From a virus, in IMG/VR virus record IMGVR_UViG_3300008448_000002, positions 32,001-96,000 of that record: 64,000 nt of DNA; one strand, given 5' to 3'. The number at the start of each line of letters is the position of its first letter. The first letter of the stretch is position 1. Under the pieces are notes generated by a model that worked only from the letters and a program-made list of their open reading frames with translations, searched no databases and was not told where the DNA came from. The translations under genes were made by a program, and so were the position numbers. Shown piece after piece: positions 18,707 through 53,360 of the stretch.

Positions 18707-21220
18707 TTAAAGTTTTTTTGCTATTTTATCAATGATGTTATCGCTCATGTCTCCGCCGAGTACTATATCAGATTCTTGTGATAGGTTTTGTATAATATTC
18801 AACTTATTAACGGGTATTTTCTTAATTTTGCCACCTTTTGTTTTAACAAAGGCACTATTATCTTTTTGACCCAGATAACAAACTGTGTATAAATTATTGT
18901 TGTATGCTATCTTAATCATGTCGTTGTTTTTTGGTGTGTCATCTGATTCTGTAATTTTTTTAGAATTAGATGAGAAATCACCGTTGTTAGTAACAGCAGA
19001 TTTTATATGTAAAGAATCGAATACCACATATGTATCTGTGTTTACTGTTTTTTTTGAATTATTATAGTCATCAAGAACATTTTTAATAATTACACCATCA
19101 TGTGAACTACTTATTGCTTTTTCGATTACATCAGTTGTTTTTCCAATAGCTTGTACTTCTCTCCAATACTTACCATCTCCTTGAACAATTAATGGATTTT
19201 CAATCTTTAAATAACATTGAATTATAGCCGGTTCTGCGTTTTGATAATCAAAAGCTCTCCTATCATCAGCATAAGTAGAAGCTGTTTTTCGATGTTTCGC
19301 AAACCAAAACGCGCCAACACCTTTTTTCTCTCCATATCTATCTTGTACACTCATGAAGATGGGAGATGCTTTCATAAATCTAGCATCAGGTGAACCATGA
19401 TATAATACCAATGGTCTTGCTTGGTTGTCGATTGCTTTCGATTCTCCAAACCAATTCCAGAAATTAATAATTCCTTCAATTGTAGGATATATTAATTCAT
19501 TTTCACTATTTTTCGTTTGTCTTTGTTTTCCATTAACTTCAATGGTGTAGGGTATTTCAATAACATCTTCATTTAGGTTTTTAATGGATTTAATTTGGTT
19601 TTTATCAAACACACAGTATATTCCAGCATTATCTACTTCAAATCTTCCTAATTTTTCCTTAGAAGGATATTGTATAATTGAATCATACTGTTGTTTATCA
19701 CTAGATTTAATATTGGTTGTAGATTTTACTATTTTAGGCGCATATACTTTTAAATAAGCCGTCTTAATATTTGAGCCATGAAATTTGGCATATTGTTCAT
19801 CATCGGTAAACCAAAAACCAATTTTTGATACTGAACCATGATTTTTTCCAAGATGCGATTCATCAAAATCTTCAAACTCATAATCAGTGCCATGATAAAC
19901 TACTAAAGGTCTACCTTCTTTATCAACCATTTTGCTATCATTAAACCATTTATAAAAGTTTACTATTGCTTGTTCTGTGTTGGCAATATATTCTCCTTTG
20001 CTATTTCTCGTAGGTCTTTGTTTGCCACCAACATTAATAGTTTCTGGTATTTCTTCACTCTCGTTTAATTTATCTACTGTGTAATCACCACTTTTATGCT
20101 GTGTGCCACCCAAAGATTTATATATAGAGGGAACTTGTTTTTTATTACTTCTTTGTTCATTTTCTCCACCAATTCCTTTATATTGCTTAGATATAAATTG
20201 TAGAGCTATTTCGTATAGTTTCTTTCCGAAACCTTTATTTCTGTGTTTCGGGTCAATTTGTACATTATAAACAGTTAAATATCCTCTTGTATCTGATGTT
20301 CTTCCTTCTGTTAGTAATAAATACCCAACTTTTTTATCTTTATACCAGAGTGTCACATACTTACAGTTATCTATTGAATCAACGGCAATATAGTAATCAC
20401 CGCTTTCATATACAATATTTTTTCCATGTTCATCTTGTTTAATCAACTTATAGTTTTCATTAACAATGTATTTTTCATTAAACCAACTCTCAAATATTTG
20501 TTCTTCTTCTAATGGTTTATCTTTTTTTAATACTTCATTGTTATATATTTCTATCAATTTTTCAGAGAATAGTTTTTCAAAATTATTTAATGTTTTGTTA
20601 TTGATTATCTTCGCGGCAATACCTTTTACAAATGTTTTAAATAGAGTATTCTTTATTTGCGCTCTGTCATTAGAGAAATATGTTATATTATCAATCTTAT
20701 TAGGATTTGATGCCGTATGATACTTATTGTACTTTAATTTACCAGATAATACATTTTCAATAAGTTTAGCAAATCCTAATACTTCATCTTTATATACTAT
20801 TTCCTCTTCATCATCTGGTTTACCATATATTTTTTCATAATATTCTTTGGCAAAGTCTATATATTTACTATCTCCAAATGATTCTTTTAAATCGAATAAG
20901 AAGTCCTTCGGTTTTAATTGCTTATTAAACTTTTTTATATCAAATAACATGTTATATTTTACAGCTACTTTTTTCAAGGTATCTATAATATCTTTAAATT
21001 CTTTTAAACTATCATTTCCACTCAGTGATACGTCAACGGATGAATTAATACCATAATCACCTATTGATACCATCATTCCACTATTTTGACAATATATTTT
21101 ACTGGCTTCTCTTGGTTTTGAAACCTTGTCACCCTGTTGATTGAATAAAGTGAGTTTTTCACCATATCCTTTTAAAATGTTAAATACTTCTTCTGTGAGT
21201 TTTTCAATTGTGGTCGCCAT
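18707..21220 (-). CDS. Polyvalent protein: N-terminal domain + GNAT + two ART-PolyVal-like ADP-ribosyltransferase domains
   Basis: GNAT motif A VQIDPKHRNKGFGKKLYE; two repeats of NFY/WxWFxxSK..D..xRPLVxYHG[TS]...GxFWF. Confidence 0.7.
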   Translation of the reverse strand: MATTIEKLTEEVFNILKGYGEKLTLFNQQGDKVSKPREASKIYCQNSGMMVSIGDYGINSSVDVSLSGNDSLKEFKDIIDTLKKVAVKYNMLFDIKKFNKQLKPKDFLFDLKESFGDSKYIDFAKEYYEKIYGKPDDEEEIVYKDEVLGFAKLIENVLSGKLKYNKYHTASNPNKIDNITYFSNDRAQIKNTLFKTFVKGIAAKIINNKTLNNFEKLFSEKLIEIYNNEVLKKDKPLEEEQIFESWFNEKYIVNENYKLIKQDEHGKNIVYESGDYYIAVDSIDNCKYVTLWYKDKKVGYLLLTEGRTSDTRGYLTVYNVQIDPKHRNKGFGKKLYEIALQFISKQYKGIGGENEQRSNKKQVPSIYKSLGGTQHKSGDYTVDKLNESEEIPETINVGGKQRPTRNSKGEYIANTEQAIVNFYKWFNDSKMVDKEGRPLVVYHGTDYEFEDFDESHLGKNHGSVSKIGFWFTDDEQYAKFHGSNIKTAYLKVYAPKIVKSTTNIKSSDKQQYDSIIQYPSKEKLGRFEVDNAGIYCVFDKNQIKSIKNLNEDVIEIPYTIEVNGKQRQTKNSENELIYPTIEGIINFWNWFGESKAIDNQARPLVLYHGSPDARFMKASPIFMSVQDRYGEKKGVGAFWFAKHRKTASTYADDRRAFDYQNAEPAIIQCYLKIENPLIVQGDGKYWREVQAIGKTTDVIEKAISSSHDGVIIKNVLDDYNNSKKTVNTDTYVVFDSLHIKSAVTNNGDFSSNSKKITESDDTPKNNDMIKIAYNNNLYTVCYLGQKDNSAFVKTKGGKIKKIPVNKLNIIQNLSQESDIVLGGDMSDNIIDKIAKKL

Positions 21221-21654: not shown

Positions 21655-23250
<1,596 letters not shown>

Positions 23251-30993: not shown

Positions 30994-31069
30994 AGGAGTA
31001 TAGCTCAACTGGTAGAGCGTTGGTCTCCAAAACCAAAGGTTGTGGGTTCAATCCCCTCTGCTCCTGCCA
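30994..31069 (+). tRNA. trnW: tRNA-Trp (anticodon CCA), 3'-CCA encoded
   Basis: Acceptor AGGAGTA/TGCTCCT, D-arm GCTCAACTGGTAGAGC, anticodon arm TTGGT-CTCCAAA-ACCAA, T-loop GTTCAATC, ends GCCA. Confidence 0.95.
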
Positions 31070-32729
31070 TTTTATTAACCATTGTGATGCCGCAATCATA
31101 GATATAGTTTCCATAATCTTTATTTGATAGTTTGTCATTATTTCTATCCAAGAAGTATCTTACTGGAGGTAATTGTATGGTTTCATTTTGGGAAAAATTA
31201 TAATAGTTGAATCTATTATCAATTATAATACTTATAGGTTTATTAAATTGTTTCTGTAAGTACAATACAAATAATTCCATAATTTCATTAAAATTAACGC
31301 AAAATATATAAGAAAAGTGATTTATTGTTTCATTTGTGATATTAACTACAGAAATCAACATATTATCTACGAATAATCCGTAAAATATACCATTATATTT
31401 ATTTTGTGGCAAATCATGGTTTTTTATGAATATGACGGCTTCCTTCTTAGTAATTTTCTTAATTGTATGATTACCTATAGCGATGTATTGACCCAATCCA
31501 AGAGATTCTTTGATTTTATTATGAATTATATCTTTACTGGTTTTATACTCGCAATCAAATATTGTCAATAGAGTAACATTCTTATCCCTACATTTTTTAT
31601 ACTTATTATAATGATAATCTTCTGATTTTCCTGCGTTTGTACTGTGCCAGTATATCCCACAATATTCAATCGCTAGATTCTTACTAGGAATATAGATGTC
31701 CAATTCTTGAGGTGATATTAATTTTCTATCACAAATCATAATATCCTCATCAGGCAATAATTCCTTAATATACTCTACAATGCCAATTTCATTTTTTGAG
31801 CGATAAGTTTCTTCAGGATAACATGTTTTACATATCTTTTCTCTAAATCTTATAGAGAAAAATCTATGAAGTAAGGGTATTTCTGTATTACAATCTATAC
31901 ATTCAAATAATATCATTTTCGGAGATAGTTTCTTTATATATTTGATATTCAATTTTTCTATTAAATGTTTATTCTTTTCGATAAACAGTAAAGTACTTTT
32001 ATTACCAGCTTCATTCATTCTTCTAATTGTTTGTACTGGTAAAGGTTTCCCCTTTAAATTATCGGAATACTTCTTTCTTGAATTAGAGAACTTATTTACG
32101 GTGAAATCAGTAATAATTTTTGAATTAGGATATAATTTTACATATTCTTCCAGTGTTAAACCATGAGTCAATGAATGACGGGTATTCATCATTCTTAATT
32201 TTTTATTACAAATAGCACATTCTATCGTTTCGTAATCAATACTTTTAACTTTCTTTGGTTTATTTTTAAAAGACTCCATTCTTGCTTTTGTTGATTTTTC
32301 TACAATCTCTCTAGGTATTTTTCGTCCAGTTAGTTTTCTTGAAATATTATCCTTTTGTTCCTGTGTTAAAGGCTTTCTCGGTTTTGTTTGTTTTAACCCT
32401 GTTTTAGCTCGGCTTAATTTTAATTTCTGTTCCTCTGACATGGGAACACCTTTATTGTGTGCCTGTCTTCCTTTGGTTTTATTTCTTATTTTTAACTTTA
32501 CTTCTTCACTTCTAGGTACTCCCTTCCTAGAATTATTATGTTTAGTAGCATGAACACTATATCGGTGTCTGGTATATTCAGACATTGTAGGACTATTAGG
32601 GTATAATTTTACATAATCCGCTGTTGTATGAATATCGTGTTGTTTTAAATGCGTAATTGAAAGCATTTTAAATTTTTTATTACAAATAGCGCATTCTACA
32701 TAATTTTCCATATAGGAATTATAACTCAT
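31005..32729 (-). CDS. Putative free-standing homing endonuclease (Zn fingers + NUMOD3-like repeats + PD-(D/E)xK-type domain)
   Basis: Two CAIC...H..H fingers, HNKGVPMSEEQKLKLS repeats, SKNE...ELDIYIPSKNLAIEYCGIYWHS; the last codons are antisense to the tRNA. Confidence 0.75.
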   Translation of the reverse strand: MSYNSYMENYVECAICNKKFKMLSITHLKQHDIHTTADYVKLYPNSPTMSEYTRHRYSVHATKHNNSRKGVPRSEEVKLKIRNKTKGRQAHNKGVPMSEEQKLKLSRAKTGLKQTKPRKPLTQEQKDNISRKLTGRKIPREIVEKSTKARMESFKNKPKKVKSIDYETIECAICNKKLRMMNTRHSLTHGLTLEEYVKLYPNSKIITDFTVNKFSNSRKKYSDNLKGKPLPVQTIRRMNEAGNKSTLLFIEKNKHLIEKLNIKYIKKLSPKMILFECIDCNTEIPLLHRFFSIRFREKICKTCYPEETYRSKNEIGIVEYIKELLPDEDIMICDRKLISPQELDIYIPSKNLAIEYCGIYWHSTNAGKSEDYHYNKYKKCRDKNVTLLTIFDCEYKTSKDIIHNKIKESLGLGQYIAIGNHTIKKITKKEAVIFIKNHDLPQNKYNGIFYGLFVDNMLISVVNITNETINHFSYIFCVNFNEIMELFVLYLQKQFNKPISIIIDNRFNYYNFSQNETIQLPPVRYFLDRNNDKLSNKDYGNYIYDCGITMVNKMAGAEGIEPTTFGFGDQRSTS

Positions 32730-37537: not shown

Positions 37538-38284
37538 TCAGCCAATAATAAATCCATAACCCATATTAGAATCCATTTGATTCTTTAATTCTTCTTCAAG
37601 AGTTATCATCATTTCTTTGGCATCGGCTTTTAATTCAGCACCATTTAATGAGCCGCCTCCTTGTGGTCCAGCGATTGTAGAAAACTTAGAATATGCTTCT
37701 CCAAGCATCATTTTACATTTTGCCACGGTATATTCTCTTATCCAAGGTCTAGCATATATATCTTTTAGAATAATATCATCGGGTCTTGTATTGTGTATAT
37801 GTAGTAAGATTGATTCTACGTTTCTGATGTCTCTATCTAAAGATAACCTTCTTGATGTTGGGTCGTATTGAAAGGTTACATATAGACCAAACATTCTACC
37901 TATTATTTCCTGAAATCCAGAAAACAATTCATATGTCACTAAATCTGTGCTTCCGCCACCTGTTAAAACAAATTGGTTTACAAACGCAGAGGCAAATGGG
38001 TCAAAATTGAGTCCTTGACCAGAAATAGTGCCCGTTGTACCTCTTCTAAAGATATTTTTCACTAAAATTACTTCTTCTGGTAAGTAATAGTCTCTTTGTC
38101 CTGGTTGTACCTCTAAAAACGCAAATCTTTCTTCTGTAGAGTTTACTGACCTTAATCTATATCTTTCAAATGCCAATTTTAATGCCAATTCATAATGTTC
38201 TGGGTCAAGGTAAACATCAACCAATCCTTCACCAAGGGTTAGTCTAACATCATTGATAATTTCTTGTTTTAATGGTGATAACAT
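37538..38284 (-). CDS. gp13: Neck protein, T4 gp13-like
   Basis: LTLGEGLVDVYLDPEH, PWIREYTVAKCKMMLGEAYSKF..I.GPQGG.SLNG.ELK. Confidence 0.85.
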   Translation of the reverse strand: MLSPLKQEIINDVRLTLGEGLVDVYLDPEHYELALKLAFERYRLRSVNSTEERFAFLEVQPGQRDYYLPEEVILVKNIFRRGTTGTISGQGLNFDPFASAFVNQFVLTGGGSTDLVTYELFSGFQEIIGRMFGLYVTFQYDPTSRRLSLDRDIRNVESILLHIHNTRPDDIILKDIYARPWIREYTVAKCKMMLGEAYSKFSTIAGPQGGGSLNGAELKADAKEMMITLEEELKNQMDSNMGYGFIIG

Positions 38285-38322: not shown

Positions 38323-39468
38323 ATGAAGATACATCAAATTATAACTGAATCAATATTACTCGAATACAATATTATCAATAATGATAAAATTAATAATATT
38401 TTAGATTTATTTCTAAAAGAAAAAGAAGTTACTGATATTTTCGTAATTAATTGGTTAAAGAAAAAAGTGAACAATTATATCAATTCAACAGGAAAATTCT
38501 TGAATCTGTATAATCCAACAGAAGATGACAAACAAAAATATCCTTGGTTAAACAAGGCGATTGATAATAACCAAGAAATATATAGATTCACAGAGGTTGC
38601 TGGTTTTAGGATGAGAGTAGACTCGGTTATTGATTGGGTTAAGTCACTTAATAAAGAAGATGAAGACTACAAAAAACTAGACAGAATATCCTTTGAACAG
38701 GCACTAGAACGCCATGATAGATGGATGAAGAAGAACGATGGCATTCTTAGGGATGACAGTAAATTAGTAAAAACTATTTACTCTTTCCCCGATGGATATA
38801 AAATTGTAGAATTACCCGATGACTTCTGTAAAACTCGTGAAGGTCAATTGATGGGACATTGTGTTGGACAAGGAAAATATTCAGGAAAAACTATATTTTC
38901 ATTAAGAGATAGGAAGAATAATCCCCATGCCACATTAGAATTAAAAGGAAATCGCGTAGTACAACTACAAGGAAAAGAAAACAAAGATGTAGTTGAAAAG
39001 TATCATCCTTATCTACAAGAATTTTTTACTAATAGTGAGTATACGTTGACTGAAGGTTATTATACAAAAATTGGATTAATTAAACTCAATAATGAAGTAT
39101 ACAAAATAAATGAAATACCCGATGGACTAGTAATAGAAAATGAAACATACACTGATTTGGAAAATTGTGAAATTTTAACTAAATTACCGAATAATTTAAC
39201 AGTTAATCATTATTTGAATTTAAATGGTTGTATTAATTTAGTTAAAATTGGCGATAATTTGAAAGTTGGCACTAACTTAGATTTAGGTGGATGTGTTAAT
39301 TTAGTTAAAATAGGTGATAATTTAAGAGTTGGTCATGTATTAAACTTGAGTAATTGTACAAGTTTAGCCAGACTTCCATATGATACAAAAGTAGGTAGTT
39401 CTGTAATTTTAGATAGATATTCTAAAATTAGATTTCCAGAACACTTGAAAATATTGAGAAAAGATTAA
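38323..39468 (+). CDS. PcfJ-like domain + LRR-like repeat protein, paralogue 1
   Basis: REGQLMGHCVG...IFSLRD..N.PHATLE, then NLxVxxxLxLxxC repeats; MKIHQIITE leader. Confidence 0.75.
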   Translation: MKIHQIITESILLEYNIINNDKINNILDLFLKEKEVTDIFVINWLKKKVNNYINSTGKFLNLYNPTEDDKQKYPWLNKAIDNNQEIYRFTEVAGFRMRVDSVIDWVKSLNKEDEDYKKLDRISFEQALERHDRWMKKNDGILRDDSKLVKTIYSFPDGYKIVELPDDFCKTREGQLMGHCVGQGKYSGKTIFSLRDRKNNPHATLELKGNRVVQLQGKENKDVVEKYHPYLQEFFTNSEYTLTEGYYTKIGLIKLNNEVYKINEIPDGLVIENETYTDLENCEILTKLPNNLTVNHYLNLNGCINLVKIGDNLKVGTNLDLGGCVNLVKIGDNLRVGHVLNLSNCTSLARLPYDTKVGSSVILDRYSKIRFPEHLKILRKD

Positions 39469-39506
39469 TTTAAATAATTGTTTTTGTATTTACAATAAAT
39501 AATAGT

Positions 39507-40565
39507 ATGCCCAAATTATCACTATGGAATCCTGTTAAAAAGAATGATTATCGCCTGTTTGACAGGACGATTAAGGAGATGTTTGACATCGGTGGGACTG
39601 GTGTATATTTACACAAATATCTTGGACCAAAAGACCAATTAGATACAGGTGATTCAACTTTGCCCCCTATTACAGATGGAAATGAAACTACCATACAAGA
39701 TTTATTATTTCTTGAAAACAGAGATAGAAAATACGATAAAGACATTTATGAATTAAGAGCGGTGTATAATCTACAGGATGCCGATTTTGATTTAAAACAA
39801 TTCAATATCTTTATAGAAAATGATGTTTTGTTTCTTGAGTTTCATATGAATGATAGTGTTGCCAAGATTGGCAGAAAAATAATGAATGGTGATGTTGTTG
39901 AATTACCCCATTTAAGAGATGAATACATATTGAATAGTTCAAAGGGTATAACCAATAAATTTTATGTGGTGGAAGATGTCAATAGAGCAAGTAGTGGTTA
40001 TTCACAAACATGGTATCCACATATTTTGCGCGTTAAAATTAAACCATTGACTGATTCACAAGAATATAAAGATATATTAGATGGTAGTGATGAAAACTAT
40101 CCTGACACTACAATAAGAGATATTTTAAGTAAGATTGACATTGATATTGGTATAACAGAGGCAATCATACAACAAGCAGAAAATGAGGTTGATAGAAGAA
40201 ACTTTGAGACAGCGCAGTTTTATGTTGTACCCAACGAAGAGATGACAAGTATGTATCCTTGGATATTCACTGGCGATGGTATTCCACCTAATGGGGCAGA
40301 ATTAGCTAGTTCTGGTAATTCCTTTCCGAGTAATCCAACAGAAGGTGATTGGTTTTTAAGAACCGATTATGAACCAAATGTATTATATAAAAGAGTTGAT
40401 GGTAATTGGAGAAGAAGAGAAGTTGATTACAGAAAACAATGGGTTGCCGCTCATAGAATATTGGCTTCTTTCATAAATAATGATACTATAACAAATAATC
40501 AAGGTGAAATATCACCGCAAAAACAAGCATTATCCAAAGCTATTAAACCAAAGGCTAATTTATGA
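39507..40565 (+). CDS. gp14: Neck/head-closure protein, T4 gp14-like
   Basis: LLFLENRDRKYD, GRKIMNGDVVELPHL, FYVVEDV...SQTWYPH; near gp13 and gp15. Confidence 0.75.
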   Translation: MPKLSLWNPVKKNDYRLFDRTIKEMFDIGGTGVYLHKYLGPKDQLDTGDSTLPPITDGNETTIQDLLFLENRDRKYDKDIYELRAVYNLQDADFDLKQFNIFIENDVLFLEFHMNDSVAKIGRKIMNGDVVELPHLRDEYILNSSKGITNKFYVVEDVNRASSGYSQTWYPHILRVKIKPLTDSQEYKDILDGSDENYPDTTIRDILSKIDIDIGITEAIIQQAENEVDRRNFETAQFYVVPNEEMTSMYPWIFTGDGIPPNGAELASSGNSFPSNPTEGDWFLRTDYEPNVLYKRVDGNWRRREVDYRKQWVAAHRILASFINNDTITNNQGEISPQKQALSKAIKPKANL

Positions 40566-41689
40566 AGATACATCAAATTATAACAGAATCAATATTACTC
40601 GAATACAATATTATTGATACAATTGAAATTGATAATATTATAGATTTATTTCTAAAAGAAAAAGATGTTACGGATGTGTTTGTAATTAATTGGTTAAAGA
40701 AAAAAGTTAAAAACTATATTAATTTAACAGGTGAGTTTTTAAAATTATACAATCCAACAGAGGAAGATAAAAAAAAATATCCTTGGTTGAACAAGGCAAT
40801 TGATAATAAACAAGAGATATATAGATTGGGTAGTGTTTTTAGTCTTAGATTGAAAGTAGACATGATTATTGATTGGGTTAAATCTCTCAATAAAGAAGAT
40901 GAAGACTACAAGAAACTTGATAGGATTTCTTTTGAACAGGCACTAGAACGCCATGACAGGTGGATGAAAAAGAACGATGACATTATTAGAGACGACAGTA
41001 AATTAGTTAAAACGATTTACCAATTTGATGATGGCTATAAAATTGTAGAATTACCAGATGACTATTGTAAGACTAGAGAAGGTCAATTAATGGGACATTG
41101 CGTAGGTAAAGGCGGATATACAGGAAAAACTATATTTTCATTAAGAGATAGGAAGAATAATCCTCATGCCACATTGGAATTAGAAGGAAATAAAGTAGTA
41201 CAATTACAAGGAAAAGAAAACAAAGATGTGGTTGAGAAGTATCATAAGTATATTATTGAATTTATTGAAAATACCAATTATACATTAAATAATGTTTATC
41301 TCAAAAAAATAGGTTTTATTAAATTAAGTAATGGAATTATAGATAATTTAACTGTTAATGACATTTTGGATTTATCTGAAAACATGTGGTTAAATAGTGT
41401 TAGTGATAATTTTAAAATTGATGGTTCATTAAGTTTAGCTGACTGTAAAAACTTAGTTAGTATTGGCAATAATTTAACTGTTAATGGTAGCTTATATTTA
41501 AGACATTGTAAAAGTTTAATTAGTATTGGCAATAATTTAACTGTTGGTGAAAATTTAATTTTATATGGTTGTATAAATTTATTTAAATTACCAGTAGATA
41601 TACAAGTTGATGGTAACATATACATGGATAAAAATACAAAAACTATTATTCCTGATAATGTAAAAGATAAAATAATATATAGAGAATAA
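40562..41689 (+). CDS. PcfJ-like domain + LRR-like repeat protein, paralogue 2
   Basis: First ~230 aa closely similar to 38323..39468; repeats divergent. Confidence 0.75.
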   Translation: MKIHQIITESILLEYNIIDTIEIDNIIDLFLKEKDVTDVFVINWLKKKVKNYINLTGEFLKLYNPTEEDKKKYPWLNKAIDNKQEIYRLGSVFSLRLKVDMIIDWVKSLNKEDEDYKKLDRISFEQALERHDRWMKKNDDIIRDDSKLVKTIYQFDDGYKIVELPDDYCKTREGQLMGHCVGKGGYTGKTIFSLRDRKNNPHATLELEGNKVVQLQGKENKDVVEKYHKYIIEFIENTNYTLNNVYLKKIGFIKLSNGIIDNLTVNDILDLSENMWLNSVSDNFKIDGSLSLADCKNLVSIGNNLTVNGSLYLRHCKSLISIGNNLTVGENLILYGCINLFKLPVDIQVDGNIYMDKNTKTIIPDNVKDKIIYRE

Positions 41690-41872: not shown

Positions 41873-43270
41873 ATGTCAAACATGAGTTATTTCTATGATG
41901 GGCAATTAAGAAGATATTTAACACAGTTCATACGCATGTTCAGTGAGTTTCAAGTTGCGAATGGATATAATCCCGATGGTACACCAATTTTAAAAACCAT
42001 TCCTATAAAAATGGCAATGACAAATAAGAATGTTGCCAGTATCATCGGAAATAATAGTGAAACAACCATAAATGCGACACCACAAATGAGTGTTTACATA
42101 GAAGGTATAACATTATCACCAGAGAGGCGGCAGACACCCAATCATACAAGTCAAGTAAGTGTTACTGAAAGAAGAATTGACGAAAGTGGTAATTATACAT
42201 CAGAAATTGGTAGAAGCTATAGTATAGACCGATACATGCCTGTTCCTTATGATTTAACTATGAAATTGGATATATGGACTAATAATGAAAGTCAAAAGCA
42301 TCAAATATTAGAACAGATATTGACTTTATTTAATCCAAGTCTTGATTTACAAACGGGAACTAATCCTATTGATTGGAGTAGTTTGACAGTTGTAGAATTA
42401 ACCGATATTAATTGGAGTAGTCGTTCGATACCCGTAGGGAGTGATATTGAGATTGATGTTTCCTCATTAAGTTTCAAAATACCCATTTTCATCAATCCAC
42501 CAGTAAAAGTTAAAAATCAACAGATTATACAACAAATTGTCACAAATATTCTTGCGAGTAGCAATATACCCGAAAAAGGTGAAAATGACGATATTATATT
42601 AGACTCCAATGATTTTATATCAAGACAGATTGTTACACCAGGAAATCATAATATACGAGTGGTTGGCGATACTATCACTTTATTAGGACAAAACGGTTCT
42701 GAAAGAGATGCGAATGGTGATTTATATAGTTGGAAAAATCTCTTAGATTATTATAGTGTATTAAGACCATCTGTGAGTCAATTAAGGTTATTGACAGGGA
42801 ATGATTCGGAAAACTATTCTGGTTCAATCATCGGCAAGATTGATTTTCATCCTAGCAATGAAAATCAATTAACATGGATTATTGATATTGATACTTTGCC
42901 ACAGAATACCATTTTACCTATAACAGCTATTATAAATCCCACTAAATCACATCCTTTAAGTGGATTAACCTTACCTTTAAATAATACTCAAACATACAGA
43001 TATCTGTTACTAGAAGATATTCCGAATAATAGTGCGGCATGGTATAATGGTTCAACATATTTTACGGCAAAAGAAAACGATATTATACAAATATCGTACA
43101 GTGTATCTTTTGGTTGGGTGGCATCAGTATTGTTTAACTCTTTCAATAACAATACAATACAATATGTTAAGAATAATTTTGATAATAAACAGCTAAAATG
43201 GAATGGTGAAAGTTGGTTATTTGCGATTGATGGCGAGTACAATCCAGGATTTTGGAAAATCAATTTATAA
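41873..43270 (+). CDS. gp15: Tail terminator / sheath stabiliser, T4 gp15-like
   Basis: YFYDGQLRRY..QF.RMF, MPVPYDL.MKLDIWT.N..QKHQILEQIL.LFNP. Confidence 0.85.
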   Translation: MSNMSYFYDGQLRRYLTQFIRMFSEFQVANGYNPDGTPILKTIPIKMAMTNKNVASIIGNNSETTINATPQMSVYIEGITLSPERRQTPNHTSQVSVTERRIDESGNYTSEIGRSYSIDRYMPVPYDLTMKLDIWTNNESQKHQILEQILTLFNPSLDLQTGTNPIDWSSLTVVELTDINWSSRSIPVGSDIEIDVSSLSFKIPIFINPPVKVKNQQIIQQIVTNILASSNIPEKGENDDIILDSNDFISRQIVTPGNHNIRVVGDTITLLGQNGSERDANGDLYSWKNLLDYYSVLRPSVSQLRLLTGNDSENYSGSIIGKIDFHPSNENQLTWIIDIDTLPQNTILPITAIINPTKSHPLSGLTLPLNNTQTYRYLLLEDIPNNSAAWYNGSTYFTAKENDIIQISYSVSFGWVASVLFNSFNNNTIQYVKNNFDNKQLKWNGESWLFAIDGEYNPGFWKINL

Positions 43271-43817: not shown

Positions 43818-44339
43818 ATGATATTAAATGTTGCGACAAAAATTACACCGCTAGCACTAGCCAACACGTTTATAGAGCGTCATGGGCGGAAAGTGAATGG
43901 TATACAGCATATGAAGCTACAAAAGCTATGCTATTACGCACATGGCTGGTGGCTTGCTTTACAACCTGAACCGTCCGAACCGTTTCTGACGGAGCGACCG
44001 CAAGTATGGAAATATGGTCCCGTTTTTAATTCGCTTTACAATGTTCTTAAACCCTTTGGTAAGCGTCCGATTAAAGAACCAAAATCGGATAATCCATTCG
44101 TTACACCTGATGTTGTTCAAAATGCTGAAGTCATTAAGTTGATTGATTGGATATGGAATAGATATGGGCAATATACAGCAGAAACACTATCTGACATGAC
44201 CCACGAAGAAGGCACACCTTGGAGAAATATTGCTAAGGAAAATCACTACAGAGTTAGGCGTGACTTACCTATTGATAACAGGCGTGTAAAAGATTATTTC
44301 AACAGCGAATACAAAAAATTGGCACCCTCAGCAACATGA
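43818..44339 (+). CDS. Panacea (DUF4065/SocA-like) antitoxin-domain protein
   Basis: MKLQKLCYYAHGW...PQVWKYGPVFNSLY...YGQYTAETLSDMTHEEGTPW. Confidence 0.85.
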   Translation: MILNVATKITPLALANTFIERHGRKVNGIQHMKLQKLCYYAHGWWLALQPEPSEPFLTERPQVWKYGPVFNSLYNVLKPFGKRPIKEPKSDNPFVTPDVVQNAEVIKLIDWIWNRYGQYTAETLSDMTHEEGTPWRNIAKENHYRVRRDLPIDNRRVKDYFNSEYKKLAPSAT

Positions 44340-44410
44340 ATGAAATTATATATACTTTACAAACCCATAGCTAAAATTTTACTAAATAATAATTAAAGGA
44401 GGCTTTAATT

Positions 44411-44542
44411 ATGAATGAAGAAAATATGGCGGATGGCGAGGAAGAACGTATATTTTATTTCGATGCGAGTGATTTTGAACGAAGCCAAGAACGAATGGTA
44501 GCGTTATCTTGTTTAGCCAAACATAATCAAGGGAGCAATTAA
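44411..44542 (+). CDS. Mini-protein 1 (43 aa) with portal-clip-like motif ERIFYFD
   Basis: Read manually; strong AAGGAGG RBS; CTAAATA upstream. Confidence 0.65.
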   Translation: MNEENMADGEEERIFYFDASDFERSQERMVALSCLAKHNQGSN

Positions 44543-44544
44543 GT

Positions 44545-44721
44545 ATGACTAATTTAGAAGAATTAATTAACAGCGGTAAAGTAAAGAAAACTCGTTGTAA
44601 TATTACTGGAAAAGTAACTTATGAGATTAACCTTAAACATATGTCTACAAGTAAATGCGATGAATATATAACACGAGTCAAGAATGAAATGAAAAAACAC
44701 AAAAATAAAGAAAGAATGTAA
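44545..44721 (+). CDS. Mini-protein 2 (58 aa) with motif YEINLKHMSTSKCDEYITRV
   Basis: Read manually; starts 2 nt after the ORF1 stop; GGAG upstream. Confidence 0.6.
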   Translation: MTNLEELINSGKVKKTRCNITGKVTYEINLKHMSTSKCDEYITRVKNEMKKHKNKERM

Positions 44722-44722
44722 T

Positions 44723-44848
44723 ATGGATACAGAACATACAGAAATAGGTGAAGAAATAATTCTAAATATTGATACAAGTAATATGACAGATGAACAGGCG
44801 AATGATTTACTCAAAAGAATTAAAGATATTGTTTACGGAATAGAATAA
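44723..44848 (+). CDS. Mini-protein 3 (41 aa) with motif ILNIDTSNMTDEQANDLL
   Basis: Read manually; starts 1 nt after the ORF2 stop. Confidence 0.6.
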   Translation: MDTEHTEIGEEIILNIDTSNMTDEQANDLLKRIKDIVYGIE

Positions 44849-44878
44849 TTAACAAAAAGTAATGAAAGAATAAAGAAT

Positions 44879-45148
44879 ATGAGAATAACACAAGAAACTA
44901 GAATCGAGGCATTAAAACTCGCTATTGAGGCGCATAAAACCTTACCGCCAAGTGTAATTGTAGATGCGGCGAAGGTCTTTGAACAGTATATTACTGGATA
45001 TGATTCGCTAACCGATGAAGAAAAAGATGCTATACTTATCAAAAGAATACAAAAAGCACAAGAAAGAAAAATAATTCATGTTGAAGTTGGTGAAATGTCG
45101 CCCCATAAAGCAGAAAATTATATCGAAAATATTAAAAAGAATAGTTGA
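44879..45148 (+). CDS. Mini-protein 4 (89 aa) ending in RKIIHVEVGEMSPHKAENYIENI
   Basis: ORF track; its C-terminus is the closest match to the recalled T4-type portal motif. Confidence 0.7.
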   Translation: MRITQETRIEALKLAIEAHKTLPPSVIVDAAKVFEQYITGYDSLTDEEKDAILIKRIQKAQERKIIHVEVGEMSPHKAENYIENIKKNS

Positions 45149-45184
45149 CATTTGATATAATTTCTGTTAATTTATATAAATAAT

Positions 45185-45975
45185 ACTAGCGATTAATTTA
45201 ACTCATATTATAACTCAAAGAATTTCCCTCGTTTATTAATTAAGTTTGACATGCGGAACACCTGACGCAGCGTTGTAAGTCTATTAAGGGGCTAGACGAA
45301 TGGAAGCGACTACTATTACGCCCTTAGCGGGATACCGTAACAGTACAGAGTGCCATTTCCCGTGAAAAGGAAGAAAGACTCCGTTCATAAATGGATAGCT
45401 ATGTTTACTTAGTTTATTGGCCATTTATGATTTTGTAATTAAAAGTATTGCATTTATCATAAATCGGTAACATAAAAGTCGGCAGTACTATAAAATCACT
45501 CAACTGACTCCTTAATTGGAGAGGAATTGATGCTGCTTAAAGATTCTTGATTAGAATCTAATTTTCAAAAGAATTGTAATTATAAGAATTAGATATGTAG
45601 GATAAGGAAAATTAAGTTCTAAATCAGGGGAACATAGAATACTGTTGTGTTATGAATAAAGAGTATGCTCTGTCTGTGAAGTTATTGACAACATACAACA
45701 AAAATAGGCTTCTGCTGGAAGTTTGTTGGTCTATTTTTGTACCGCCCTAGAATGACGAGAGTTGTTCGGAACAAGTGTTAAAATTAGGTATACGGAGGGC
45801 CGCCTAGCAAGAAGAAACTTGTACACTAACAATTAATATTTCCAGAAGACGTGATAAAAAATGTTTTAAATGTTCCCTCTACATCTGTTATCGGCACTTT
45901 ATTGTGTTTTAGGCAGGTGTAGGGGGAAAAGACGTGCGCTACGCGCAAGAAAGCAAGAAAACCTAGTTTGGGGGG
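45185..45975 (+). ncRNA. Candidate large structured non-coding RNA
   Basis: No ORF of 60 aa or more; GC-richer than the flanks; TTGACA (45145) and TATAAATA (45175) upstream; many helices, including a 14-bp helix with two G-U pairs; ends in a 10-G tract. Confidence 0.5.
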
Positions 45976-46189
45976 GGGGTGATGTAGTAAGAATGCCTTG
46001 TATTAGTTGATTATTAGAAGTAATGAATTAAATTGATAAATTAAATAAAAACTTACCAAGTAGACCTGATGATTAAATAAAAACAAATTTATATAAAATA
46101 TATACTTTAAAATAACTCGCACTGATATATCACAAATTAACTAATATAAATTAATTACCTGATGTATATAAATTAACTTAAAGTAATTG

Positions 46190-46520
46190 CCATGTAAGGT
46201 AGCGTGACACGGCTTGCGCCATGCCACTCACAAGTTGTAAGTTAGATTGCTTCGGCTAACGCCTCGCCCTAACTTACAACTTAATATTTTCTTTATTGAA
46301 TTAATTTAATAAGTAATTAAAATAAACATATAAAAATACTCTTAGAACAAGATTGAGTAATGGTAAAAGTAATTAACAAGTAAGAAGGAGGGCGTAAGCC
46401 AGACTGAATTACTTGTTAATTAAGAGAGGTGCGAGGTCGTAGACCGAGTAGCTCGCTAGAACAGATTAACTAAGAAATTATGAATATAACCTGAAAATCA
46501 CTTAAGGACATCTATGTCCA
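46190..46520. other. Cluster of long perfect inverted repeats with GC mini-hairpins (origin-like or RNA structure)
   Basis: 14-bp IR 46232-46245/46269-46282 enclosing GCTTCGGC; 14-bp IR 46370-46383/46409-46422 enclosing GGCGTAAGCC; GGTC-GTA-GACC. Confidence 0.55.
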
Positions 46521-46550
46521 GATTTCAATCAAGTTATAAATATATGTAGC

Positions 46551-51523: not shown

Positions 51524-51913
51524 ATGACTACATTAAACGAACAATACTCGACTTTTGTTGGTGGATTATTAAGTAAACCAACCACCAATGATAATGCTTT
51601 TTTAGAAAGTTTGGTATCCCTACAAAAAGATGTAAATATTTCAACATTGTTAGCTGGTTCACTGGGATTACTTGGTGAATCCGCTGAAGTTAGTGAATTA
51701 GTTAAGAAAATGGTTTTTCAAGGTAAACCATTTACACAAGATATTAAAGAAAAACTTGTAATGGAACTTGGCGATGTTGCTTTTTATCTAATGACTGCCT
51801 GTTTGGCACTCAATGTTAGTATTGATGATATTATTCTTAATAATATAGAAAAGTTAAAAACTCGCTATCCAAATGGGTTTACTGTTCAGCATTCAGAGAA
51901 TAGAATTGTATAA
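51524..51913 (+). CDS. mazG: MazG-like NTP pyrophosphohydrolase
   Basis: GLLGESAEVSELVKK...MELGDVAFYL...NIEKLKTRYP. Confidence 0.85.
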   Translation: MTTLNEQYSTFVGGLLSKPTTNDNAFLESLVSLQKDVNISTLLAGSLGLLGESAEVSELVKKMVFQGKPFTQDIKEKLVMELGDVAFYLMTACLALNVSIDDIILNNIEKLKTRYPNGFTVQHSENRIV

Positions 51914-52161
51914 TGGAATACGACTTTAAAAACCTAAAAGATGAAGAAATATATACAAAAATTGCCGAATTGAATAAAAGAATAGCTTTTTATTCAAACA
52001 TGGGAAATGTTGATGTTTTAAATCAATTAAGAAATTATTTAGAAATATTAAGAAATGAACTCTCAGAACGTATTTTAACTAATACAACGGATAAGAGAAC
52101 AAAAAGAGTATTCAAACGTCCTTTAATGGCAAAAAGAAGATTGAAAAGTAATGATGAATAG
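51913..52161 (+). CDS. Hypothetical protein
   Basis: 82-aa ORF in operon. Confidence 0.6.
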   Translation: MEYDFKNLKDEEIYTKIAELNKRIAFYSNMGNVDVLNQLRNYLEILRNELSERILTNTTDKRTKRVFKRPLMAKRRLKSNDE

Positions 52162-52822
52162 TTTTTCGTTTAGTTATAAAAATACTTTAAAAATAGTAAG
52201 AATTTTAGATTCTACTTTTATGCCTGAGTTTTTAACATTTGAGATTGGCTTTACTCAAGTTGAAAAAATTGAAGAGGAGAACATAGAAGAAATATGTCAA
52301 AATACGTTTATTAAGATTGATTTTTTTATTAAAACGGTCTTAGATAATGCCATTTTTGTTGAACATATTGACCCACTATGTGAAGAACTACTTATGGCGG
52401 ATAACGAAACAACGACAGTAGATAATACAATAGTATTATGCCCATCTCCCCCAACAGACACTATTATAGCATTGTTGTTACTGTCAAAGTTGAAAACTAT
52501 CTCAAATGCGGTTTTTGATGTTAAAAATATAAAACTTGGGAAATTAGTAGAAAATCACATGACGGTAGAGTATGATGGCAATCCTGCTACCATACTACCA
52601 ACTAAAGACCAATGGGTATCAAACGAAGGGTTTTCTTTTGATAAATCATGGTGGGAGAGAGACGATATTAGTACATTTGATGCCGTATTTGAAACAGCAG
52701 AGGAATTAGAAACGATGAAAGAAACGGTTTCATATGATAATTTCTTTGGTTCTACGGTAACACAAGAAAAAAATAATGTTATTAGACCGCAATTCACTGT
52801 TATAACCAATGATAAACTATAA
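52151..52822 (+). CDS. Hypothetical protein
   Basis: 223-aa ORF in operon. Confidence 0.65.
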   Translation: MMNSFSFSYKNTLKIVRILDSTFMPEFLTFEIGFTQVEKIEEENIEEICQNTFIKIDFFIKTVLDNAIFVEHIDPLCEELLMADNETTTVDNTIVLCPSPPTDTIIALLLLSKLKTISNAVFDVKNIKLGKLVENHMTVEYDGNPATILPTKDQWVSNEGFSFDKSWWERDDISTFDAVFETAEELETMKETVSYDNFFGSTVTQEKNNVIRPQFTVITNDKL

Positions 52823-53360
52823 AATAGTAAATGAATATAATTTAATTGATGTTGATGAGAAATATGCCATTGATATTCTTTTAAAGGATGATGACTTACT
52901 AGATAGTGTATATTTAAATAAAGACTTGATAGAACAATATAATAATAGTTGTGACACAACATATCAAGATAAAACTCATTTTATGTCTCCATCGACTATC
53001 ATGAACATGTACACTAAAGAAGAATATTTTGATAAGTGTATTAATAACTGGTTTATACCAACCAAATATAAGAATATTAATTTAAAGTCTTATTTTTATT
53101 CTAAAATAGAAACCATTATAGAAAAGAATAGAGTTGATTTAGAATTAAGTTTAATTAAAAAACATAAGTTAGAAGACATGATACGCTCATTAATATATCT
53201 GGTGGATATATTAGCTATAAATAATATTCTATGGGGAGTGGGCAGAGGAAGTTCTGTATCGCTTTATATTTTATATTTAATTGATTTACATGCTATAGAT
53301 AGTATTAAATATGAAATAGACCCATATGAGTTTTTTAAACAAGAAAAGGAAATAAACTAA
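52809..53360 (+). CDS. dnaE: DnaE-like N-terminal fragment (GRGS region)
   Basis: RVDLEL..I....LWGVGRGSSVSLYILYLIDL..ID.IKY.I...EFF matches the DnaE segment just before MPDxDxDF. Confidence 0.8.
   Translation: MINYKIVNEYNLIDVDEKYAIDILLKDDDLLDSVYLNKDLIEQYNNSCDTTYQDKTHFMSPSTIMNMYTKEEYFDKCINNWFIPTKYKNINLKSYFYSKIETIIEKNRVDLELSLIKKHKLEDMIRSLIYLVDILAINNILWGVGRGSSVSLYILYLIDLHAIDSIKYEIDPYEFFKQEKEIN

Follow-up and report, generated by a model that had tools for sequence, protein, structure and literature searches.

An array of four small genes in a T4-related phage

Our analysis concerns a window of 64,000 nucleotides, bases 32001-96000 of a 194,657-bp IMG/VR record that is judged about half complete (31.7% GC). 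The source virus is a large myovirus related to T4. Within the window are encoded its large terminase, a gp13-type neck protein, a gp15-type tail completion protein and a sheath protein, and its portal is encoded elsewhere in the same record. On the 3' side of gp15 the genes run in the order of a gamma-glutamyl cyclotransferase-like gene, a SocA/Panacea antitoxin-like gene and four consecutive open reading frames, here called m1 to m4 (ORF1 to ORF4 of the array), which are separated by gaps of 2, 1 and 30 nt (m1-m2, m2-m3 and m3-m4). An earlier, sequence-only reading of this DNA had placed four ORFs of 43, 58, 41 and 89 amino acids at 44411-45148, and both the sizes and the coordinates are exact; the antitoxin that it saw beside them, lacking a toxin, is likewise borne out by a Pfam match. 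A candidate fifth member, c5, lies further along the window. The distinctive feature of the locus is this tandem and strongly diversified clip array.

Table 1. Features of the array, its surroundings and the candidate partners of its products. Positions are those of the window except for the portal.
Feature	Position	Strand	Description
Large terminase (TerL)	21655-23247	-	PF03237 E 1e-21, PF17289 E 6e-10; candidate binding partner
gp13-type neck protein	37538-38284	-	PF26809 on the identical gene of contig L008; candidate partner
gp15-type tail completion protein	41873-43270		Assigned by Pfam search
SocA/Panacea antitoxin-like gene	43818-44339	+	PF13274 E 1.6e-17; no toxin gene seen alongside
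CTAAATA, T4-late-type promoter variant	44382-44388	+	23 nt 5' of m1
AAGGAGG Shine-Dalgarno sequence for m1	44396-44402	+	8 nt 5' of the ATG at 44411
m1	44411-44542	+	43 aa; weakest member; clip strand motif and possible helix only; net charge -6
m2	44545-44721	+	58 aa; clip strand, tip, alpha6-like helix; net charge +7
m3	44723-44848	+	41 aa; clip strand, tip (NM), alpha6-like helix; net charge -8
m4	44879-45148	+	89 aa; N-terminal helix, portal wing end, stem helix alpha5, first clip strand, tip, alpha6
c5	51913-52161	+	82 aa; candidate fifth clip member (clip-only HMM)
Own portal	G000:C1:121097-122851	-	584 aa; outside the window, 45 kb downstream of the array

Two stretches near the array deserve description in their own right. 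Two PcfJ-like genes and a gene of 352 aa separate the gp13 neck gene from gp15 (window 38323-41689); since relatives have lysozyme, hydrolase or homing-endonuclease genes at this position, the neck module is a hot spot for accessory genes. Immediately 3' of the array is an ORF-free gap of 1.4 kb (window 45150-46550) with GC-richer islands. It contains TATAAATA at about 45175, and long hairpins occur in it, one of them at about 46232-46283 with a T-rich run after it. No Rfam family was matched in this gap, even at E-values of up to 1.

Resemblance of the mini-proteins to the portal clip

The clearest link to the portal is that of m4, which matches the Pfam family Portal_T4 (PF07230) with an E-value of 2.1e-9 and 37.1 bits (cut-off 22.9 bits) over positions 192-231 of the 433 in the profile, and the portal family phrog_213 with an E-value of 2.9e-8. 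Its identity to the phage's own portal is 50% over 38 aa (E 1e-12, portal residues 280-317), and its residues 49-85 align to residues 268-304 of T4 gp20. In tblastn searches of isolate phages the likeness to portals extends over m4 residues 11-86, so that m4 runs from the last part of the wing through the entire stem helix alpha5 and the first clip strand to the tip and alpha6.

The sequence-only reading had proposed PF07230 as a profile against which to check each peptide. By significant profile match m4 is the sole member of that family; m1-m3, like c5, gave no Pfam match, and these proteins are linked to portals only by a clip-restricted profile or, for m1-m3, by profile-profile comparison. 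An HMM of the stem/clip segment of 107 portals was searched against every ORF of 30 aa or more in the 194.6-kb record, 1349 in all. It ranked the own portal first (E 3.4e-42) and m4 second (E 1.7e-13), followed by m2 in third place (E 0.002), m3 in fourth (E 0.023), c5 in fifth (E 0.025, profile positions 16-61) and m1 in eighth (E 2.8). By our own arithmetic, the probability that three named neighbours of m4 would all fall within the top 8 of 1349 is about 5e-8. A profile of m1, m2 and m3, built without m4, was aligned by hhalign to a profile of 25 portals with a probability of 92.9% and an E-value of 3.8e-7, over residues 292-320 of the own portal. The strand motif R[IV]FY[IVF]D occurs, among all six-frame ORFs of the genome, in the own portal and in m1 only. 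The HMM ranks and the hhalign match, together with a MAFFT alignment that reproduces the original register, uphold the claim that the four ORFs share one alignable motif. The further claim, that all four are stand-alone and diversified derivatives of the portal clip, survives in graded form: on these comparisons we regard such an origin as firm for m4, good for m2 and m3 and weak for m1, and we treat both m1 and c5 as statistically weak members.

The order of strand, tip and alpha6 known from the stem helix alpha5/clip region of T4-type portals (PF07230; PDB 3JA7 and 6UZC) is kept in all copies, although the mini-proteins are far more divergent than these portals are among themselves. Pairwise identity among the copies is about 20% in the MAFFT alignment, in which the strand-tip-helix pattern is nonetheless retained; the identity of m1-m3 to the own portal does not exceed about 25%, and the portal-invariant residues around the strand (RAPERR, D and G) are mostly missing from them. 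The net charges of the five copies are -6, +7, -8, -1 and +5. With 41-89 aa, the mini-proteins are fragments derived from portals and not portals: a complete portal has about 500 aa, with wing, stem, clip and crown, and can form the dodecameric ring, whereas here the wing, crown, second stem helix and clip hairpin are all absent. Having neither wing nor crown nor the remainder of the stem, they would be unable to build a portal.

Expression and predicted structure

The four ORFs of the array are intact and consecutive, each with a start codon, and cover 738 nt of an AT-rich genome. The CTAAATA promoter variant and the AAGGAGG ribosome-binding site that had been read ahead of them are both in place (Table 1), and the promoter sequence belongs to the real promoter-type signals of this phage: the 80-nt stretches ahead of 168 genes show an 11-fold enrichment of ATAAATA and a 5.6-fold enrichment of CTAAATA. 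The CTAAATA variant is common to the upstream regions of the array, the portal gene and the TerL gene, which suggests late co-expression, and the mini-proteins are thus probably made late, alongside portal and terminase. The codon-usage score averages 0.44 for the array, compared with 0.51 for genes and 0.03 (sd 0.34) for out-of-frame ORFs; the scores of single ORFs are not significant. The start of c5 overlaps the stop codon of a MazG gene (TAATG), and c5 is by its sequence predicted to be translationally coupled to MazG.

AlphaFold2 models were obtained for m2 and m4. The m2 model (pLDDT 74.6) has two strands, at residues 13-18 and 23-28, that form a beta-hairpin, and then a helix at 35-57; the m4 model (pLDDT 75.6) has a helix at 46-59, an extended or coil segment at 60-74 and a second helix at 75-88. 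The beta-hairpin followed by a helix that had been expected of these proteins is therefore predicted for m2, while m4 is modeled as helix, extended segment and helix. Foldseek found nothing significant in the PDB, with T4 portal chains at ranks 4, 6 and 7 (E 2.6-5.5, 38-40 columns, about 3 Å rmsd), and the ESM Atlas gave only viral hypothetical clusters below threshold. A ribbon-helix-helix identity was considered and rejected: no family of this type is among the Pfam matches at E-values of up to 1, and the m2 model has a hairpin and one long helix, where such a fold calls for two helices after the strand.

Relatives and distribution

A HMMER search with m4 against 1.84 billion representative sequences recovered two other proteins only, P0123 and P0124. 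P0123 has 249 aa and comes from a complete phage genome of 516,805 bp with terminal repeats (IMGVR_UViG_3300034072_000758), which also carries a full portal gene 100 kb away; a separate small clip gene with a full-length portal elsewhere in the same genome is thus found both in our phage and in this one. P0124, of 93 aa, has two clip modules in a single chain and is encoded next to a MazG gene on a short contig of 2.9 kb. Both are single genes, P0124 with its internal duplication, in contrast to the four adjacent genes and candidate fifth described here. By hmmalign and MAFFT the common module runs from the first clip strand over the tip to alpha6, with the end of alpha5 as an optional addition in front, and the hmmalign alignment of nine sequences places the limit of the stand-alone copies just after alpha6 in P0123, in both halves of P0124 and in m2-m4. 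The alpha6 of P0123 resembles that of its own phage's portal and not the family consensus. Outside the module, the only resemblance is a weak one between the N-terminal regions of m4 and P0123. Iteration of the mini-protein HMM yielded no further members in this genome or in the 517-kb phage genome.

The order of MazG, one or more small ORFs and a DNA_pol3_alpha-like fragment is common to window 51524-53360 and the P0124 contig; this shared order suggests a related phage with a clip gene in its replication-gene region. Two further contigs that were found with P0124 (L013 and L014) were considered as stand-alone members and are ordinary portals.

Searching 50,697 isolate phage records by tblastn with P0123 gave matches at 2325 places in 2323 records, which means a single place in almost every record. 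All 25 of the matches listed are annotated portals or lie at the position of the portal gene as judged by sister records, and no stand-alone clip relative is among the matches listed. The one record seen with extra places, that of Escherichia phage WPEC3 (PV611058, about 294.8-295.7 kb), was found with m4 as the query; its apparent tandem array of three portal pieces was rejected as an assembly artefact, the region having long poly-G/C runs and pieces of about 150 bp that are 99% identical to the WPEC3 portal gene; these pieces carry Sir2, NUDIX and portal CDS annotations.

Megablast against isolate phages found no close relatives of the phage, a related-locus search of IMG/VR with m4, gp15 and TerL found no relatives, and a word-indexed protein search with m4 returned only m4 itself. 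The identical contig L008 stops 250 bp past gp15, short of the array. In the nearest relatives found (L009 and L011, with 46% identity in gp15) there are no clip ORFs 3' of gp15, and NAD-salvage genes stand there instead. The expectation that the array would be conserved in related phages is therefore disappointed at this locus, although the family itself does recur, in two other uncultured phage contigs. We found no published description of stand-alone portal-clip mini-genes in the literature searched.

Possible functions of the clip copies

Several partners crowd onto the clip: the packaging motor binds there, as does the neck, and so do no fewer than two immune sensors of bacteria. In T4 gp20, residues 255-278 form helix alpha5 and residues 279-358 the clip, and the tip residues N291, M292, R295 and K296 touch the terminase gp17, their mutation abolishing packaging (PMC4493910). 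The T4 residues given in the first reading agree with these, and the same paper backs its identification of the shared segment as the terminase-contacting tip of the clip. One strand of each subunit pairs with two strands of its neighbor in the T4 clip sheet, and after packaging the C-terminal arm of gp13 enters the space between the alpha6 helices and also docks on the clip strand (PMC12929587). A synthetic peptide of 24 residues (gp20 288-311) binds gp17 and inhibits packaging in vitro, as cited in PMC4493910. The core of m2-m4 covers the residues equivalent to this peptide, including the N291/M292 and R295/K296 positions; the mini-proteins differ from it in being natural, gene-encoded and present in several diversified copies. 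At the column of M292, a residue that T4 requires for packaging to start, the own portal has Q (residue 304), whereas M is found in 104 of 106 related portals; the copies have M in m2, m3 and m4, V in c5 and F in m1, and so are hydrophobic in all five cases.

On these grounds the mini-proteins are most likely soluble look-alikes that would occupy whatever binds the clip tip. We infer their expression, the binding of a partner and the partner's identity, and among the partners we place first a packaging or assembly protein, the terminase or the gp13 neck protein, for which the mini-proteins would be soluble competitors; this is quite possible, while still short of probable. The ranking follows from the direct precedent of the peptide and from the hydrophobic tip that the copies have kept. 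Second place goes to host portal sensors, which are favored by the setting in an accessory locus, by how far the copies have diversified and by the patchy distribution of the family. The array would yield free-standing and diversified copies of the first clip strand, the tip and alpha6, in m4 alone together with the end of alpha5, and the candidate target would be the arm of the gp13 neck protein or the large terminase, whether the phage's own or one from a co-infecting T4-like phage. Binding might then block docking or set its timing, in the manner of the gp20 288-311 peptide with gp17. Against a terminase blocker stands the consideration that, made alongside the phage's own terminase, it would harm the phage unless the own pair were insulated, which is conjecture; against simple self-regulation stand the four or five copies, their identity of about 20% and charges that run from -8 to +7.

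Natural, gene-encoded copies of this surface alone would add a new class to the small regulators or counter-defence proteins of phages, one made by excising a module from an essential virion protein. Were they to block terminase docking, they would be natural packaging inhibitors; in any case four to five copies of varied charge and sequence provide a ready panel for the identity and specificity of clip binders.

The mini-proteins may instead act as immune decoys, occupying Avs4-type STAND, Avs11 or SpbK-like TIR sensors without bringing about their oligomerisation and thus shielding newly made portal. We regard this as possible and on the whole doubtful. SpbK makes its contact at the clip helix, and its clustering requires the portal dodecamer (PMC12847820); the clip-region surface is also part of what Avs4 binds, as cited in the same report. 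A decoy would have to be made together with the portal, which the predicted late co-expression would provide; m4 and P0123 extend from the wing end through alpha5 and the first clip strand to alpha6, and the alpha6 of P0123 follows its own portal over the family consensus. The locus is a variable accessory one that adjoins the Panacea antitoxin-like gene, and the copies are strongly diversified and patchily distributed. Conversely, Avs sensors use extended interfaces that recognise a fold (PMC13581612), with which a piece of 40 aa may not compete, and m1-m3 are poor copies of the own portal, from which the tip residue also differs. We found no portal-derived decoys in the literature searched, and decoys that blind Avs4- or SpbK-type sensors would be the first to derive from the sensed protein itself. 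A parallel is DSAD1, which is reported to be a separate phage protein that counteracts the tail-tube sensor DSR2 (PMC11087589); the likeness is that of a small phage accessory protein with a proposed interference in the recognition of a virion protein.

Returning to the look-alikes of the clip as competitors for packaging or assembly partners, a more specific form of this reading takes the array as a set of weapons between phages, in which each copy would mimic the usual hydrophobic tip of portals and block terminase or neck docking of a different co-infecting T4-like phage, and packaging of the own genome would be insulated by the change from the almost invariant M to Q at the portal tip. We consider this form unlikely.

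Improbable, in our estimate, is a role as modulators or poisons of portal-ring assembly, in which a free clip strand would pair with the two-stranded hairpin of a portal subunit, replacing the strand of the neighbor, and so cap the portal monomers of a competitor or, ahead of assembly, those of the phage itself. The strand is kept in all mini-proteins and is unpaired in the m4 model; in m2, however, it is predicted to be satisfied within the protein's own hairpin, the RAPERR, D and G residues around it are mostly lost in m1-m3, and such a mechanism is without experimental precedent.

It is very improbable that the array is non-functional debris, the leftover of partial portal duplications that by chance have stayed open. 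The array is not conserved in relatives, m1 is barely recognisable at rank 8, and no close relatives were found by which selection could be gauged. Yet debris would hardly be expected to keep four intact consecutive ORFs with start codons over 738 nt at 32% GC behind a shared promoter and a strong ribosome-binding site, to preserve the strand-tip-helix pattern through divergence to about 20% identity, or to show identical module limits in unrelated phages, including the 93-aa protein with two modules; the predicted coupling of c5 to MazG also speaks against it. An antagonism of the stringent response through RelA/SpoT binding retained from the portal, by analogy with T7 Gp8, which binds RelA and SpoT (PMC13483052), and with a Panacea-domain protein as neighbor of the array and MazG as neighbor of c5 and P0124, is scarcely credible, since deletion of the T7 clip enhances the binding, for which the clip is therefore dispensable and an intact ring is needed (PMC13483052).

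Other features of the window

A tRNA-Trp gene (CCA) at window 30994-31069 on the plus strand overlaps the 3' end of a 574-aa ROS/MucR-like ORF on the minus strand (31005-32729). At window 18707-21220, a protein of 837 aa has both a GNAT acetyltransferase and an ART-PolyVal ADP-ribosyltransferase domain, and ART-PolyVal genes are found near P0123 in the 517-kb phage as well.
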